The notes beneath the pieces are model-generated. The model saw nothing but the letters and a program-made list of their open reading frames with translations, made no database searches and was not told the DNA's origin. The translations under genes were made by a program, and so were the position numbers. From Podarcis gaigeae (lineage: Eukaryota), in NCBI GenBank assembly GCA_964106915.2, contig OZ066914.1: DNA of 64,000 nucleotides. One strand, written 5' to 3'. Positions 43,707-53,794 of the stretch are shown in pieces (the stretch's first letter is position 1; each line of letters starts with the position of its first letter).

Positions 43707-43710
43707 GCTC

Positions 43711-43717
43711 ATAAATA
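43711..43717 (+). promoter_or_regulatory. TATA-like box of GAL (ATAAATA)
   Basis: At the 5' edge of the GAL CpG-rich region, immediately after the gap. Confidence 0.55.
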
Positions 43718-43739
43718 GCGCGGATCGGACTGGCTTAGG

Positions 43740-43940
43740 TACCACTCGGACCACCACCCCGCCTCCCCAGCGCTTCTTCCGCAAGCTCCTCCTCCTCCTG
43801 CTCCCCGCTTGCGGGATCTACGCAGGGATTGAGTGAGGAAGATTCCCACAGGAGATCAGCCAGCAGCCCTTGGGGACCACCGTCCTACCGCTCGCCAGGA
43901 TCCACCTCGACACACATCGGACACCACTTTGCACGGCAAG
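43740..43940 (+). other. GAL: GAL putative non-coding exon 1 (start approximate)
   Basis: CpG-rich segment about 30 nt after a TATA-like ATAAATA; donor gcaag|gtactg at 43940/43941; vertebrate GAL has a non-coding first exon. Confidence 0.65.
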
Positions 43941-44194
43941 GTACTGTCGCGCTGCGTTCGTGACCTCATGCGCCTTCCCCATCTTTGGCTACAACTTTTG
44001 ACGCGCGTCTTTGAGTTCTCCTACCCGCCGTGTGCGCGCGTGTTTATATAAAATCTGTAGATAGAACATCGCTCGTTCCCCTTTACTTTCTTCCTCCTGG
44101 GATTATGGGTAAGAAGGGAAGCGGGTGTCTGAAACCCCCCAGCTGACAGGGGCGGGCAGGCAGAGGGGTTCAGTGCGTTTTGGTCTCCTTTCAG

Positions 44195-44275
44195 ATGCAG
44201 AGGTGTACCTGTCTCCTGTTTGCCTCCTTGATCTTCTGCGCTGCCGTCTCAGAGACTTTCGGGCTGGTGTTATCC
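44195..44275 (+). CDS. GAL: GAL exon 2, signal peptide MQRCTCLLFASLIFCAAVSETFGLVLS
   Basis: ctcctttcag|ATG acceptor, TCC|gtgagt donor, 81 nt; resembles the sauropsid GAL signal peptide. Confidence 0.93.
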
Positions 44276-47200
44276 GTGAGTATTGTCGCTTTCTGCTTTC
44301 TACACTACTCTCCGTCTACAATAATCATGTGTAAGTGGTGAAGGGTGGGTGGGGGACAAATTTCACGGTAAATTTCAGAAGCCTGCTCTTGGATCAATGC
44401 AAGAGAAAGTGTGTTCACACGGTCGTTTTTTCCTCCAGTATTGATACAGTATAGCCACTCATTTATTCCGGAGTACCCAAACAGCCTTCTTACAAAGGAG
44501 GGCATCCCTGTTTTCTCCCCAGTGTCATCCTGAAGTTTTTGAGTGATGGTGGTGTGTAGTGATTTTTTGGAGTTTCCATCACAATTATATAGTGCAGTCC
44601 TTTCAGGTATGATGGATTGATGGAATTCTGTTGTCTGGCATGAAAGTGTGCTTTGGGAATGTAGCAAAGCCCCTCTGCATTTCTTGGTCACCTCTCCACA
44701 GTTGCCAGTTCTAAAATGTCATCCCTCTGCAGTGGTTTTCCTACAGTGGTGGAACAAATTTCCCTCCCCATTTCTGGGGCAGGAAGGAAAGTGGGGGAAT
44801 AACAATTGTATTTTCCAAGAGTTGATCTTTTCCAGCTGGAGAGAAGCAAGTGATTTGTTGAAGAGCACAGGAATCCCAGAGAAAGTGGTGTAAATCTTTT
44901 GAAACAGTTTAACAGCAAGGAGAATGTGAGTTGCTTCTTACTGAGACATTAATGTCAAGCTGGTTGCAGTCCCAAGTTTACTTTTCTGGAAGGAAATTCT
45001 TTTGAAATTGATGAAGCCAACTCCAGAGTAACCTGAGAGTACAAAGTATGAGGGATGAAACCCTGTAACAAATCATTTACTTTACTTATTTTTTATTTTA
45101 TTTTAGCTATATAGTAATTTATCCTTTAAATTCAATTATACTATTCAAACAACACTATAAATATTATATAGTTATATATGGTAGATTACACTTACATTCA
45201 AGAAAACAGGTTTAAATATATATTATGAAACATGATCAATGTGTGATTTCCTTGGCTGGTATTTCTGTATTTTAAAAGAAAAATTGTGTGGCAGTAATAA
45301 GTGAAAAAATAATAATCTCACAATTTTTCTTTCTGCAAGGCTAAAGAGAAAAGGGGATGGACTGTGAATAGTGCTGGTTATCTGCTTGGTCCAAGTAAGT
45401 CCAAATGTTTTATATTACTTGAAGACAATCTGGAATAACAGAAAAGTAACATCCCGAGGTTTCTAAAGCTCATCACATACTATACATGAGCATACATGCA
45501 ATATCCCATACTAACTCTCATTCACAGCTTGTGGCGGGTGACAGCACTAAATCACTCAGTTAGTGCTCTCTCTGGTGTTTATTGTAACCTATTTACAGTG
45601 GAGTGCTTTGCAGGAATTATGACTCTTATCACTGCGCTTGAATCATGAGAGTAAACCAATTTTATCTGAAAGCTCATCTTTCAGTTCCGAAGCCATGCCA
45701 TTTACAGATAATATTAAATATACATACTAGTATCTCTGAATGTGGTTATCAACTTTCCTGGAATAAATATGCCAAACTAATACTATGCTGGAAAACTGTA
45801 TCTTTTCTGCTTTGGAGTCCACATCTTTTTACTTTCCTTTGCTTACTGTTGTTGAGAAGATGATGTATTTTGGACTGTCTACAAACAACTGAGGCCCAGT
45901 CCAGCAAAGTTAATGAAAGGGCATCTGCTTTGCATGCTGAAGGTTCTGCATGCTGATGTCGCCAGCTAGGACTGGGAGAGAGCCCTGCCTGATCTCCTGA
46001 TAAGTTGCAGCTAGCTATTGTAGACTATACTGAGCAAGAGGGGCTAATAATCAGACAGACTCAATATTAAGCGGCTCCCTATGTTCCTAAATCCCACTGA
46101 GTGTACTCGAATAGGACTTTACCTAGATTGTGCCCATGATAAGTGCTTTATGTAGATACTATACTTCAGCTTAGGGAAATAATTTTGTTATCCATGAACA
46201 GGTAATTTTGGTAGAGAAGAGGGTAAAGCGATTGAAGTGGTTAGGTGTCGGGGGGACAAAATTCACAGTAAGGTTCAAAAGTCTTTTACTTGGATAAATG
46301 CAAGAGAAAGGGTGTTCCCATGGTTGCTTTTTCCTCCAGTATTGATTCAGTTTGCTCACTCATTCCTGAGAATCCAGGCAGCCTTCTTCCAAATGACATC
46401 TCTCTTTCCTCGCATCATGAAGTTTTAAAGTGCTGGTTTGTAGTGATTTTTTTTTTAAAAAAACCTTTTTATTAAGTTTCCCATTTTAACAATCCAATCG
46501 AATCACATTGAATGTTCCAGATTACACAAATACATATCAAATAGTCCAAATATTCTGCCTAAATTATATATTTTTTGCCTAAATTATTTTTTTTTTGTTG
46601 AGACTTCCCATGCTTCAAGTTTGGGGAGGCTCTTGTTTGTAGTGATTTTTGTTTATCACCCTTTCCTTTAGTGTACAAGCAATTATCAGCTAAGCTTCTT
46701 TTAAAGCCAAATTTCTTTGTGCAGATTTACGTTAAGATAAACTGTTTCAATATCAAAATGATTTACCTTAAATCCATGTTGTGCTGCAATAGCTAGCAAT
46801 AAACATACACTTTCACTCCTTGCAGTAGGAGAAAAGGTTTCATCAAACTTTCACCTTTTCTTTGCGTAAAGCCTCGTGCTACCAGCCTAGCTTTGTACTT
46901 AACACTACCATCTGCCAAGTGTTTTATTTTATACACCCATCTACAGTACACTGTCTTTTTTCCTTCTGGCAATGGCTCAATAGTAAACACATTATGTTCT
47001 GCCAAAGATTTCATTTCTGCCCTCATTGCATTTCCCCACATTACTATTTCCTGGTGTGGTAACTTTAAAACCTCCTTATAATCACGAGGTTCTTTCTTCA
47101 CATCAACAGTTTTAACTTCTTGTATAGTAAACCTTTCTGGAGGTACCCCCTTATTGCTTCTTTGTGATCTTCAAACTTGAACACTTTCCCCCTCTGAACT

Positions 47201-50200
47201 ATCTTCCCCTTCTAATTCATCTTGCTCAGGAGAAATTGGTTCAGCTTTAGGAGATTGTGTACTGGGACCCTCATCCCCTGATTCCTCATCACTATCACTT
47301 TCAGAACTTTTTTTAATTTGTGGCTTTTCTTCCTCAGATTTCACAAATTTATCTGTATCATCTGAAAATAAAACAACTTCTGAATTTCCATGTAAACGAG
47401 CCCAACCATCTTACTCATAAAACTCTGCATGTCTTGATATTACAACTCTGCCAAGCCCTAGTGCAAAACGATACACTTTTGACCAGCTTTGATAACCAAC
47501 AAATCTAAGTCTCTTTGCCTTGGGAACTCCTTTCCTTCTCTGTCCTTTTGGGATGTGAACCCAAGCCCAACAACCAAAAGTTTTAACATGGTCCAAAAAA
47601 GGTTTTTTTCCATAAAGCAAAAAAATGAGGGGTATTGTTTATGGTAAAATGAAACAATCTGTTCTGTATGTAATTAGCACAGAGAATTGCTTCCCCCCAA
47701 AACTTCCTGGATAAGCCAGAATTACATAACATAGAATCTAGCATTGTTTGTAAAGACCTTATCTTGCGTCCTGCAGCTGAATTTTCTTCGGGTGAAAAAG
47801 GACACTATTTATGGTGACTAATACCACATTTTTTTCAACCATATATGGAGGGCTTCAGACATGAACTCGCCTCCACGGTCACTCTGCAATTGGGTAACTT
47901 TGTAGGGAAACTGCCTTTCTATATAGTTGACCCAATTTTTAATCAGTTGACCAGTTTCACTTTTGTGTTTTAACAAGTATACCGGCTATAATCACCCACA
48001 AGAACCAGAAAAAACATTGCTCCTCCTTCAGATTCTGCAAATGGCTCACAAAGGTCTGGATGTAATAAAGCAAATGGCTTCTTGCTAATTCAGGATAAGA
48101 TCCCCACTTACTTTTAGACTACTTGCAGGTATTGCAGTCCAGAAAAACTGAACATTTTTTTCATTTTAATTCCCTTACTTAATTCTGGCATTTTTGCAAT
48201 GCTGCGGAAATTGGCATGCCCCAAATGACCATGCCACAAATGCTGGCACTCATCATGCAAGGCTCTATTACTGTTGGGGGGGGGGGTTCTTCTGGTGGCA
48301 GACGACAGAACCATGAAAGAACACTCAAACAAAGGTTTTATTACAGCTATACAAAACAACAAACAAAAAGCATGCAAGTGTTCTCTCTCTGCAGGCAAAT
48401 TCAAACTGCAACTTCTCCTCCTTTTGTAGTCATCACCAGCTGTACCTAATCAGCCTAGAAAACCACTCCCAGAACTCACAGAAAAGGTTCTTAAAGTTAC
48501 AGTCATCCTTTCTGTTTATTTGCAGAATGACTCCTAACACTACCAGTAGATCACGATCGACCTGTTGGACATCCCTGGAACAGATCAACTGAAATTAATA
48601 GACCTAACCTAGCTGTGCTCATTAAATTCAGTGGGTCGACTCTAAGTAAAGCTTAACTGAATACAGCCGAAGTTTCTCTTTGTACACACCTGTTAGTAAC
48701 CTCCAGCTGCTTCACTCATAACGGAGCTGTATTTAACTAAGTGACATTTTCAGAATGCAAGCTTCACGCCTTTGCTGCTTATTGGGTGTGTTCAATACAC
48801 CTTTTCACAATTGCCCAATATGTTAGATTATAGCTATCCGTCCGTATGTTGTAGAAATTACTTTCAATGACACAAGAGGGGTGTCTTTACTTACAAGGGG
48901 TAAAGCATAATACAAGAGTTTTAAAAACCGTGCCTAAATACCTCTACTAAGAATGTTTTATTTGTTTGTGTTGGCTTCAGATAAACAGTGACTGAAGAGG
49001 CTGTGCAGACAGCCAAATCTCCATTCCATAGAAAAGAGATCTACTGATCAAAGTTCCGTTTTTTCTAAGGTTGGGTAATAGCCATAATCTGTTTCAGGTC
49101 GTGTTGCTCAGATCCTCAAGAAAATGTCCCGTGCAAAGGGGACAGAAGAGCCACCTGGGGAACGTAAGATGGCTTTTGGAGGTTATTCGTGTAAACTAAC
49201 TGCAGTTTACTGTCAAAGCAAACTAACTGACAACTCGCTACTTAAAATCAAAGGAAGCAACAGTACAACTACATTTTCTTTTGTTTTCTTTTTATAAAAT
49301 TTATTGAACAATTTCCACAAACAAATTTCAAAACAAATAATCAATTACATTGTTCCCCCATATTTTCCTTATTCCCCTCCCTATCCCTCCCTCCCTCCCT
49401 CCCTCCCTCCCTCCCTTCCCCTCCAGAGACTTCCCTCAGCTCCTCTCTCTGATTTGTATACCTATGTTATTCTCTGCATGTTAAAGAATGTACGTATCGT
49501 TACTTAATCTATCATATGTTCATCTACTAAATTTGTGGATGTTTATTCAAAACCTGCCAAGGAGTCCAATTCCTTTTGTTGTTGTTTTAAGTAATTTGTA
49601 AAAAGTTCCCACTCTTCTTTGAAGTCAAAGTTGTCCTTATCACATAATTTATATTTCAATTTAGCCAATTCCGCATAGTTCATCCGTTTTTCTTGCCACT
49701 GTTCCTTCATTGGGGTTTCTTCATTCTTCCATCCTTGTGCTAACAAGGCTCTTGCCGCTGTTGTAGCGTACATAAATAAGTTCTTTGTTTTTCTTGGCAG
49801 GTCTTGTCCTACAATCCCCAACAAAAATGTGTCTGGCTTTTTTACAAATGTAATTTTAAACATTTTTTCCAATTAATTATTTATCATTCCCCCCCCCCCC
49901 AATTAACCTCTCTACATTCCCACCACATATGGTAAAAAGTACCTTTTTCTTTACATTTCCAACATATGTTTGATCCGGTTTTGTACATTTTTGCTATTTG
50001 TACTGGTGTAATATACCATCTGTACATCATTTTCATATAATTTTCTTTCAAAAGAGAACAATCTGTAAATTTCAAATTTACTTTCCACAAATTTTCCCAG
50101 CCCTCAAATTGTATGTTATGTCCTATATCCTGTGCCCATTTAATCATAACTGATTTAACCTCCTAATCTTTTGTCTCCCATTCTAGCAAAATACTATATG

Positions 50201-53200
50201 CTTTCTTCAACAGCTTCACTTCTTCTTCTATAACTTCCTTTTGAAATCTAGAAGTTGTATAACTAAACCCTTTCTTGCTATCTTCCTTATACATCTCACG
50301 TGATTGTCTGTAATGTAACCAACTTTGAAATGTTCTTTAATTTCCTCATAGTCTTTTAATTTCCACTTTCCTTCTTGGTCCCTCAGTAAATCTCTGTATG
50401 TAGGCCACCTCCCCTTTTTGCCAAGCAGTTTGAGTAACAAAGCTTCAATTGGTGATAACCACCAGGGTGTTTTTTTGTTCAATTAAGTCTTTACAGTACA
50501 ACTACATTTTCTAAATTGGACACAATGAGCCCAAGACTGCACCCAGATATGCTCAACTCTTTTAGTCACGGCTTTTCAGGAAAGGACAAACGAGGGCTTT
50601 GAATCAGAGATGGTTCAGGAGATGCCTTTCGAATTCCTTGCTAATGGCTCAGTTCCACATTTGGCTGAAGGGACACATAAAGTCATTGGGACGTGTTATA
50701 CCAGTAGCTGCACCACCACCACATCATCATCTATGACACTGTGGTGGTGCAGTTGTTTGCCAGTGATGCATTGGTTTACAGCTGGTGTGTCTGTTTAAGT
50801 GAAATGCTTCTTTCCATTCATTTGCTGTTCACCATCCCATCATGAAATGTCTTTCACGTTCTTGTTCAAAGCTGAAATCTTTTTACCTGGTGTGGTGACG
50901 TCTATGAATCTCAGGCTACTCTAGTAAGCATTACAGAATGAATGAAACCTCTCTCGTTTGTTAACAGGTGCAATTGACAAAGTTTTTAATGCCCAGCCTG
51001 GTCTAGCTGGTAAACGTGACATACAGCTTGAAGGAAATACAAAAGCAGGTAATGAAATGACCCCCTTCTCATACTTACTGAGGAGTTTATATCCCAGTGA
51101 TATCTGAACAGCTGCCCACCAAACATTCTTGGCACATTTCTAGATTCTAAAGAGAGCCTTTATTCCAAACTTTTACAGGGGGGGTCTGGGCAGGATTTCA
51201 GGAGTCTAGAGGTTTCGGCAGGGCCAGTCAATCAACTGGTGTATGGATTGCATCACCCCTTTTTATTCTTAGTGCATTTGAAAATGAAATATTGCTTTTA
51301 AAAGATACTTTAAACTAGAGGAAAAGCTTCTTTCCACTGGAAACTGAGTGCCGCTGATTACAGAAGCTGGTTAACATAAGTAGACCTATAACCAACATTG
51401 TCTCATCAGCCTGAGAGAAAAAACAAACCCTTTATATCCTAATGTATATTATATTACTGCCAATATGTATCCCCTTCCCCACCTTAATTATTTTAAATGA
51501 ACAGCAAATTTAGTAATACCTAACTAATATTTTCTAGGTATTTTGGGAAGACCACTGACTGATGACAATGTTTTGCGTATGGTAATTGATTTTTTGACAT
51601 ACTTACACCTTAAAGGTTAGTAAACCTGTTTTCACTTCAAACCGTTTTGTAATATGAAAATTAACATAATCCTTACAGAGGATTGTAACCCATATTCCAT
51701 GAGCAGCATTCCACTCAAGCAACAGGATTCCCCCCTTTCCTTGTGTGCACCCCAGATCTGCTCCAAAGGCCCCACCCCACCCCAAGAATTTGCAGAAAAT
51801 ATTTGCAGAAAAACGTAAAGAAAATATTTAGGGGCAAAACCAAAGGGGAAAAAAGCTCCCAAAACTGACCAATGAGGAACTGGGTGTAAACAGAACACTA
51901 GGAGAGGGGGACGGAGTAACCTGGAAGAGACACACCTGGCTGGCTTTTGGACGTTCAGGCAGTCATTACGGCCGGGAATGCCTTTGCTTAAGTTTGGTTG
52001 GTGTACCAAATGCATCCTTTCCTGGAAAAGGCAGATCTGGCTACTGCTGGTTATTACCCACATGGCTTTGCATGGACATTTGAAACTGTCCACTCACTTC
52101 TTCTTCCATGTGCTGCCACTGGCAGAGGTGAGAACATGAGTAGAGCCCTGCATGATCAGGCCAAAGGCTCATCCTCTTCCCAGATGCCTATGGGAAGCCT
52201 GCTAGCAGGACCTGAGTCTCCCTCTTCTGATTCAGAGCAATTCGTATTCAGAGGTGTGCTGCTTCTGACAGTGGAGGTAGGACATAGCCAATAGCCCACT
52301 GACAGCTTTATCCTCCATGAATTGTCTATTCCTCTTTAAAGCCATCCAAGTTTCTCTCACTTCACCTGGTGAGAGAAAATTTTGCAGCTCAACTATGCAC
52401 TGTGTGAAGAGGTACAGTGGTACCTCAGTTCTCAAATGTAATCCATTCCGGAAGACCGTTCGAGTTCCGAAACATTTGGAAACCAAGGCACAAAGGGCTG
52501 TCTGCAGATTCAGTTGAGAAAACTGAAAAACACGCAGTGGAAGCCGTTTGACCTCCGAGGCGCATTAGGAAACGGAAGCATCCACTCCGTGTTTTTGACG
52601 TGCAGGTTCTGAAACTTTCATCAACGGAGACGTTCAAGAACTGAGGTACCACTGTAGTTTCTTCTGTCTATCCTACCTCTTCCAACTTTCAGCTTCATTA
52701 CATGGCCCTGAGTTCTAGTATTATGAGGGAGAAAAACTTCTCCCTGCCTTATTTCTCCACATCATGCCTAATCTTATACATCTCGGTCATGTGCCCCCTT
52801 TCTAGCTGTTTCTCTAAACCAGAAAAGGCCCAAATGTTGTAACCTTTCCTCATGGGGGCGTTGCTCCATCCCATGGATCTTCCTGGTTTGGTTGGACGTG
52901 GAACAAGGCCTTCTTTTTGGAGCGTTCTAACTCTGGAACAAATAAAGCTGTTGTTTCTTACACACACTTTCTCAATGCTGAATGGCTTCTTAATTATTAC
53001 AGGAAAATTGCAGGTGAAATAAATGGGGTTTTGCATCTTTCCAGAATTTCTTTCAGCTTTTAGGCAGTGTGATTTTTTCCCCCTACAAAGGGAGCCATAT
53101 AGGTAGAAAATTATTCGTACAAGGAGAGAATAATAACAGCAAGATGAAAGGCAGGCACTGTAATTGCAAATCGGATGGTAGTGCTTCTGTCAATGAAGGG

Positions 53201-53794
53201 ACCTTTGAGTCAAAGCCACACAATGCTTTCTCGATAAGGGAAGAAAAGCACATTCATTGACAGGTGAAAATGTTCAAGGATGACCAGCCTCATGCAACAG
53301 TGCAAGAAGAGAAGCATATTTAGAATTTGCCACGTATTTAAGCAAGGGAAGCTGTGGTCCTCCAGGTGTTGTTAGACTACAACTCCGCTCAGTTCCAGCC
53401 ACCTAGGTCAATATGATGGAAGCAACACTTTGAAAACCAAAGGTTAGCTGCCTCTATGTTAGAACATAGGTTTCCCATCACTGATTTGAACCCCAACACA
53501 TGCCTATATCAAAATTACATCCATACATAATTACAAACAGTAGAATGAAACCATAAGAAAGGAATGGCGTATTGTTTTTATTTCTTTTCGGAGACGTTAA
53601 GTGAGTTCAAGTGCCTTGCCTTGTATCATAATTGCTTTGGAAGTGAACTGTAGTTTTATAGATTTGTCTCCAAGCACTTACTGTTTCCTGTCTTTCACAA
53701 GCATACACTTTTAATTTTTATTTATTTTTCAGAAGCTGGGGTTCTTGATGACATACCTGCAACACTTTCTTCAGAAGAAACAAATCAGTCTTGA
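44195..53794 (+). CDS. GAL: Preprogalanin (galanin + GMAP), 118 aa; 140 aa with cassette exon
   Basis: Exons 44195-44275, 45340-45394, [49098-49163], 50968-51048, 51538-51615, 53733-53794 join in frame: MQRCTCLLFASLIFCAAVSETFGLVLS AKEKR GWTVNSAGYLLGPSAIDKVFNAQPGLA GKR DIQLEGNTKAGILGRPLTDDNVLRMVIDFLTYLHLKEAGVLDDIPATLSSEETNQS*. Confidence 0.95.
45340..45394 (+). CDS. GAL: GAL exon 3, AKEKR-GWTVNSAGYLLGP
   Basis: Galanin N-terminal signature after the KR site; 55 nt; A|gtaagt donor. Confidence 0.96.
46452..46634 (-). mobile_element. Short poly(A)-tailed retroposon 3' end (probably L1)
   Basis: 16-bp TSD GTTTGTAGTGATTTTT (46436-46451 and 46635-46650), with AATAAA and an A-run on the minus strand. 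Confidence 0.65.
46660..48450 (-). mobile_element. Ty1/Copia LTR retrotransposon pol remnant (pre-integrase, integrase, RT start)
   Basis: LWHGHLGHANF, QLQSDRGGEF, KTFGCWAWVHIP, CRWVYKIK...YKARLVARGFTQ; integrase-before-RT order is diagnostic of Copia; frameshifted. Confidence 0.9.
49098..49163 (+). CDS. GAL: GAL alternative cassette exon ((S)RVAQILKKMSRAKGTEEPPGE(R))
   Basis: ctgtttcag acceptor, C|gtaaga donor, 66 nt, phase 1/1, no stop. Confidence 0.75.
49280..50492 (-). mobile_element. 5'-truncated L1-clade LINE in a GAL intron
   Basis: ORF2 C-terminus with CCHC knuckle (CWKCKEKGTFYHMWWEC), A-rich tail, 20-bp TSD ACAGTACAACTACATTTTCT (49260-49279 and 50493-50512). Confidence 0.88.
50968..51048 (+). 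CDS. GAL: GAL exon 4, SAIDKVFNAQPGLA-GKR-DIQLEGNTKA
   Basis: Amidation/cleavage site GKR; 81 nt; AG/GT. Confidence 0.92.
51538..51615 (+). CDS. GAL: GAL exon 5, GMAP core GILGRPLTDDNVLRMVIDFLTYLHLK
   Basis: GMAP signature .N..R..I.FL.YLHLKE; 78 nt. Confidence 0.95.
52120..52880 (-). mobile_element. Degenerate CR1 LINE 3' fragment, interrupted by a MITE
   Basis: GLEKQLERGHMTEMYKIRHDVEK and ALKRNRQFMEDK resemble the CR1 ORF2 end. Confidence 0.65.
52415..52654. mobile_element. Tc1/mariner MITE inside CR1
   Basis: TIR CAGTGGTACCTCAGTTCT, TA TSD. Confidence 0.82.
53733..53794 (+). CDS. GAL: GAL exon 6 coding part, EAGVLDDIPATLSSEETNQS-stop
   Basis: ttatttttcag acceptor; TGA at 53792-53794. Confidence 0.93.

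Follow-up and report, generated by a model that had tools for sequence, protein, structure and literature searches.

Galanin exon 3a and a burst of amino-acid changes in the long galanin of wall lizards (Podarcis)

The most unusual trait of the wall-lizard galanin gene (GAL) is a burst of amino-acid changes specific to Podarcis, which an initial annotation of this DNA had missed while drawing attention to one of the gene's exons. We analyzed a window, the whole stretch of 64,000 nucleotides from Podarcis gaigeae, in which that exon, an old cassette known in other vertebrates as exon 3a, would let one gene yield a galanin of 49 residues when spliced in or of 27 residues when skipped. We consider it probable that the long form serves as a whole ligand with altered signaling and that the peptide was reshaped by selection in wall lizards.

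Gene layout and use of the cassette exon

A complete galanin gene lies on the plus strand of the window, where the cassette is accompanied by five other coding exons, each with AG/GT ends. Transcript evidence came from relatives of the sequenced animal, through contigs of six sequencing runs (X1, X4, X7, X10, X13, and X14). The features are as follows.

43707..43940, plus strand: first, non-coding exon of GAL, with a provisional 5' end; an X4 contig lies over 43707-43938
44195..44275, plus strand: exon 2, with the start codon and signal peptide; residues 1-32 show 0 differences from Zootoca and Lacerta
45340..45394, plus strand: exon 3, with the KR site, galanin 1-13, and the first base of codon 14 (Pfam PF01296)
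46793..48449, minus strand: broken Copia-type LTR-retrotransposon pol fragment in intron 3 (Pfam)
49098..49163, plus strand: cassette exon 3a, 22 residues, single copy; inclusion junctions in X14 (both) and X13 (upstream)
49260..50512, minus strand: 5'-truncated LINE-like insertion with a 20-bp target-site duplication
50968..51048, plus strand: exon 4, with C-terminal galanin, the GKR amidation/cleavage signal, and the start of GMAP (spliced contigs)
51538..51615, plus strand: exon 5, GMAP (spliced contigs, protein comparison)
53733..53794, plus strand: exon 6, coding part to the stop codon, with the 3' UTR running on to at least 53969 (spliced contigs, protein comparison)

In exon 3, which scores 29.7 bits against PF01296 (cut-off, 20.5), the galanin 1-13 core stands directly after KR. 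The GKR signal is followed by GMAP (PF06540), for which a record that departs from the window product at 2 of 140 residues (P0014) scores 86.8 bits. The best protein relatives, at 84 to 88%, are lacertid galanins named galanin peptides. By its sequence, the gene is the GAL ortholog rather than GALP, and because its product is only 2/140 residues off isoform X1 of both P. muralis and P. raffonei, it is a Podarcis gene.

A second galanin-family gene was located at G000:C25:21076963-21076998 on the minus strand, as well as at L005:1497-1551 and L008:5640-5690. Its 55-nt exon encodes KR followed by galanin residues 1-12 in unchanged form and His at position 13, and a GMAP-like exon lies about 4 kb beyond. 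The gene is far more diverged than GAL and is a putative GALP. We rejected a recent GAL duplicate that might have freed one copy, as a whole-precursor search matched this locus only and the C25 gene is far diverged. A loose scan of the window for spexin-like motifs gave no convincing exon. In turtles, some species have records named both "galanin peptides" and "galanin peptides-like" (P0050, P0080, P0081, and P0105), a pairing that hints at a duplicate GAL gene.

The cassette, read from the window sequence, is 66 nt long, is bounded by AG on its 5' side and GTAAGA on its 3' side, and sits in phase 1/1, with the reading frame open through it from exon 3 to exon 4. It adds 22 residues, giving a precursor of 140 residues and 49 residues between KR and GKR, versus 27 when it is left out. 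On these points (coordinates, translation, phase, and the two peptide lengths), the initial annotation was exact. Its description of the splice sites as strong suits the donor, which matches 7 of 9 consensus letters, but not the acceptor, whose pyrimidine share of 0.59 is the lowest among the six coding-exon acceptors (0.65 to 0.76 in the others), as one might expect of an exon that can be skipped. A T-rich tract ending in AAG at 49058-49069, 28 nt upstream of the cassette acceptor, would cause a frameshift if used; no contig among the runs aligned over the exon backs its use.

A search for sequencing runs listed 22, of which none is on record as RNA and 16 were guessed to be RNA; six distinct runs were aligned as contigs, and their RNA nature is inferred from GT..AG joints. 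The runs derive from relatives rather than from this individual (X14 is off the window at one exon-4 base, and X13 is ∼4% off in introns), and their contigs demonstrate presence, not absence, and yield no inclusion level. Constitutive GAL introns appear as GT..AG joints in X1, X4, X7, and X13, including the joint 43938-44193 (cut +2), which is present in all four of these runs. Among the joints listed, three of the six runs (X1, X4, and X7) carry the GT..AG skip joint 45394-50968 and two runs from two studies (X13 and X14) include the cassette. X13 joins exon 3 to 49098, also among the joints listed, and its 96-nt contig covers the end of exon 3 together with the cassette and carries 8 differing letters. 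In X14, a 562-nt contig matches 49098-49165 without a single differing letter; its unaligned ends correspond to the final 30 nt of exon 3 and to the beginning of exon 4, which places both inclusion junctions in one contig. Both joints proposed for checking by the initial annotation (45394-49098 and 49163-50968) were therefore seen in relatives' contigs, both in X14 and the upstream one in X13. No inclusion contig was found in the remaining four runs, judging from contigs and the joints listed; X1 had an unspliced contig only, X10 had none, and X4 had no depth in the exon bin. In the transcripts of relatives, the cassette is a real exon that is both spliced in and skipped.

The exon had been described as flanked by Copia and L1 insertions. 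The upstream label stood: RVT_2 (E value, 2.4e-10) and SH3_retrovirus (E value, 2.3e-20) exceed their cut-offs, with rve and gag_pre-integrs falling below theirs, and we take the RVT_2 domain to mark the fragment as Copia. The downstream element is a 1.2-kb repeat with a T-rich end and perfect 20-bp direct repeats (49260-49279 and 50493-50512), and it is high copy (40 of 4,766 candidates were scored, of which 39 were non-self at 86 to 91%). The name L1 did not come from Pfam, which named none of its three ORF pieces and gave two spurious sub-cut-off matches; that label comes from a cysteine-rich motif. One 634-nt contig from X13 runs from 49134-49278 directly into 50493-50991, which is the empty site. 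X13 has the exon without the insertion, and the insertion is therefore younger than the exon. As it is absent from the organism of X13, the insertion could serve to mark lineages. Both flanking transposons are incidental, and neither explains the exon; a transposon origin of the exon was rejected because it is single copy in genome G000 and older than the LINE-like insertion.

Exon 3a across vertebrates and the changes in Podarcis

Judged by sequence, the cassette is galanin exon 3a, the squamate homolog of the long-galanin exon of birds and teleosts. Long galanin has 49 residues in the 16 other squamates that we tabulated and 52 to 53 residues in birds, crocodile, turtles, amphibians, and coelacanth, and the Podarcis insert is alignable with the bird, crocodile, turtle, frog, and coelacanth inserts; between Podarcis and Zootoca, 14 of the 23 residues of codons 46-68 are identical. 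The homology that the initial annotation had proposed is upheld, with an orthologous insert across bony vertebrates, and so are the 27- and 49-residue forms. The exon is neither hidden nor new. The text of Lai et al. (2025; PMC12749109) describes galanin exon 3a in teleosts, amphibians, reptiles, and birds, with inserts of 22 to 24 amino acids, and cites earlier reports of long galanin from quail, goldfish, and sea bass. Furthermore, the RefSeq proteins XP_077788127.1 (P. muralis X1) and XP_053251635.1 (P. raffonei X1) both contain the cassette unchanged. Publication together with annotation in Podarcis means that the exon and the long isoform were already known. Exon 3a is annotated in many further squamates, and P. 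lilfordi has only short forms among the records seen. In the text supplements of PMC12749109, "podarcis" and "lizard" occur 0 times and "anolis" 6 times, although the alignment in Fig. 1c there may still show a lizard sequence.

The chicken long galanin, GAL53, and the window gene have in common an extra exon between exons 3 and 4, an insert after residue 13 in phase 1/1, a changed junction residue, alternative use, and KR and GKR flanks. Squamates in general differ from chicken in an insert of 22 rather than 24 residues and a short form of 27 residues; Podarcis differs further in that RR at positions 14-15 is gone, KK is gained, and His14 of the short form has become Ser. Squamate galanins (27/49) are two residues shorter than those of bird, crocodile, and turtle (29/53) and that of tuatara (short form only), at window positions 50968-51006, and the squamate insert carries a second two-residue loss relative to birds, crocodile, and turtles. 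The statement that mammals lack the exon agrees with the text of PMC12749109, but one marsupial record, isoform X2 of Notamacropus eugenii galanin (P0071), carries 25 extra residues at this junction, with a short ARGR stretch in common with exon 3a. If homologous, this insert would be what is left of an exon that mammals reportedly lack; it could equally be an unrelated cryptic exon.

Within the genus, the peptide is nearly constant. The cassette of the window shows no difference from those of P. muralis and P. raffonei in protein sequence or from that of X14 in DNA sequence. The precursors of P. muralis and P. raffonei are each 2/140 residues off the window product, and the mature 49-mer is identical to that of P. 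raffonei and 1 residue off that of P. muralis, with nothing of substance different. Two close relatives outside the genus, Zootoca vivipara (XP_034980320.1) and Lacerta agilis (XP_033012106.1), have the same length, layout, and signal/pro region as the window product; their mature peptides are off by 13 and 14 of 49 residues, respectively, and nearly all of these differences are derived in Podarcis. Across all 16 other squamates, the Podarcis 49-mer differs at 13 to 19 residues, while the 120 pairs among those 16 differ at no more than 9 (mean, 5.1). The Zootoca long galanin is only 2 residues off those of Hemicordylus and Sceloporus.

Polarized against Zootoca with five outgroups, the ratios of changes on the Podarcis side to changes on the other side were 13:0, 13:0, 13:0, 12:0, and 12:1 (P = 0.0002 to 0.003); against Lacerta, they were 12:1, 12:1, 12:1, 11:1, and 11:2 (P = 0.003 to 0.02). 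The count of 13 versus 0 that three outgroups give against Zootoca (P = 0.0002) is a lineage-specific rate excess. None of the 32 residues of the signal/pro region differs from Zootoca, and GKR plus GMAP differs at 7 of 59 residues, with a lean toward Podarcis (4 to 6 versus 0 to 1) that reaches P < 0.05 in 1 of 10 tests. Of the 13 changes, 9 affect the 23 codons that make up the cassette with its junctions, 3 affect the tail, and 1 (M4V) affects residues 1-13; residues 36-49, the tail matching chicken 38-53, hold 4 Podarcis changes. The short form is altered as well, having Ser where 71 of 77 short-form records have His14.

According to the text on the human GALR2 structure (PMC9371267), Trp2, Asn5, Tyr9, and Leu10 carry binding and residues 14-16 are without receptor contact. 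These four residues are unchanged in Podarcis galanin. With 12 of 13 changes outside residues 1-13, receptor binding was probably kept and the bias-tuning tail altered. The role given to the tail is drawn from chicken: in PMC12749109, synthetic GAL53 is described as a beta-arrestin2-biased GALR2 agonist, its bias is abolished when residues 38-53 are deleted, and the residues responsible for the arrestin bias of long galanin could not be pinned down.

Literature searches, with most subscription journals outside their coverage, found no paper on Podarcis galanin divergence. Cichlid galanin (PMC4992253) is another case of exceptional divergence in one lineage, for which ligand-receptor co-evolution was proposed; unlike Podarcis, it concerns a teleost and a 32-residue short peptide, and no selection test was noted in the part of that paper covered here.

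Selection, relaxed constraint, and processing

Positive selection is the likely cause of the Podarcis changes. More specifically, with somewhat better than even probability, a positive-selection burst on the Podarcis stem rewrote a quarter of long galanin, centered on the cassette, with RR lost and KK gained, and then froze, in a neuropeptide that otherwise hardly changed during the squamate radiation. Wall lizards would then have a GALR ligand retuned by nature, perhaps together with receptors that co-evolved or with a new product of cleavage.

A DNA-level comparison was possible with X13. The last base of its exon 3 is C, which is what both the Zootoca and the Lacerta peptides call for, so that X13 behaves as an outgroup. 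Between X13 and the window, 8 of the 65 bases compared in the cassette differ, versus 106 of 2,402 bases in five mainly intronic pieces (4.4%; Fisher's P = 0.009), where the baseline is probably too low, as it uses five of eight X13 pieces displayed, omits three transposon-derived ones, and carries an 85% filter. Against the most diverged intron piece alone, P was 0.03. The minimum number of base changes in those 65 bases needed to reach the Zootoca or Lacerta peptide is also 8; the observed number equals the minimum, and so nearly all X13 differences would presumably lie in replaced codons, with ∼0 to 1 silent. For the mature peptide, at least 15 changes over ∼111 replacement sites leave an excess that holds to a neutral divergence of 7% (P = 0.013) and is lost at 9% (P = 0.08), and for the cassette alone, it holds up to 11% (P = 0.03); the regions tested were picked after the data had been seen. 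GC-biased conversion is not supported as a cause, there being no AT-to-GC bias among the changes (7 versus 6).

An unlikely alternative is relaxed constraint, under which residues beyond 13 lost their function, for example to spexin or to a different ligand of the galanin family, and were then changed by drift. The placement of the changes, almost all outside the receptor core, suits such a loss, as does the presence of the second galanin-family gene, with its unchanged 1-12 core, at G000:C25, and the drift of GMAP on the Podarcis side fits gene-wide relaxation. Against relaxation, replacement changes exceed the intron baseline (with its filtering noted above), exon length, frame, and splice sites have been kept, the cassette is constant within the genus, and the signal peptide is unchanged. 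Positive selection accounts better than decay does for a burst of change that is followed by stasis.

A question compatible with either selection or relaxation is how the long precursor is processed. Both forms are predicted to be cut at the flanking KR and GKR sites and amidated, and the long form is likely to leave the precursor in one piece and, by analogy with chicken GAL53, to signal differently at its receptor. The initial annotation suggested, as one option, that the long precursor is cleaved at its internal KK into an N-terminal 20-mer, which would be a ligand, and an amidated C-terminal peptide; we regard this as doubtful. The KK is present in the window insert, the 20-mer would span the 16 residues that the GALR2 structure shows (PMC9371267), and the loss of the conserved RR at 14-15 with the gain of KK at 21-22 could represent a moved site. 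The text of PMC9070308 adds that cathepsins L and V cleave at KK or between its two residues when P2 is hydrophobic, as here, where Ile-Leu precedes KK, and that PC1/3 and PC2 cut KK in proenkephalin; in the peptide library described there, however, PC1/3 cut KR and RR and PC2 cut KR. The idea that KK marks a general cleavage product of the long form is not supported, since this internal dibasic site is not conserved across orthologs. It is absent from all 16 other squamates (KE in 15 and ME in 1), making it specific to Podarcis among them, and occurs in 5 of 57 long-form records, a set with several records per species (the 5 are 3 Podarcis and 2 frog records). By comparison, RR at 14-15 is found in all 16 other squamates, and 50 of the 57 long-form records open the insert with RR. 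Moreover, the bias of chicken GAL53 requires the C-terminal part (PMC12749109). The peptides in PMC12749109 were synthetic, and neither "mass spectrometry" nor "cleav" appears in its main text; mass spectrometry of cichlid pituitary detected the short-isoform galanin peptide, according to the text of PMC4992253.

It is very unlikely that the long form was driven toward a membrane-active host-defense peptide in which galanin 1-13 is joined to a cationic helix lacking proline. Residues 14-28 do have a charge of +5, compared with +1 to +4 among 11 others, and a proline is gone from this stretch, but the whole 49-mer is only +3 and the hydrophobic moment is not raised (best 11-mer, 0.83, versus 0.78 to 0.96 in other squamates). 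A helix at precursor residues 45-58 appears in an AlphaFold model of low confidence (pLDDT, 52.6; pTM, 0.21). Reports of antimicrobial activity of GMAP and alarin, in the text of PMC9764007, and the intestinal peak of chicken GAL53 mRNA (PMC12749109) would agree with a defensive role; the changes, though, also strike the tail of the short form. Finally, that the cassette is a chance or transposon-derived cryptic exon, or is dead in this species, is extremely improbable: it does sit between two transposon insertions with the weakest acceptor in the gene, and the runs used are relatives, none shown to be this species, but the insert is orthologous across bony vertebrates and single copy, is spliced in in two studies, and is present in X13 where the LINE-like insertion is absent.

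Meaning for wall-lizard galanin

The reading that we prefer remains an old cassette used alternatively, with a wall-lizard peptide that was probably reshaped by positive selection. Exon 3a itself adds nothing new; the Podarcis variant is of modest interest as a case of fast, lineage-specific remodeling. It is uncommon for a neuropeptide as conserved as galanin to change adaptively. The Podarcis and Zootoca 49-mers have the binding core in common and differ at 12 tail residues, and they provide a ready test set for the residues behind arrestin bias. If the changes are adaptive, they may reflect a shift in gut, feeding, or reproductive signaling in a much-studied genus of lizards.
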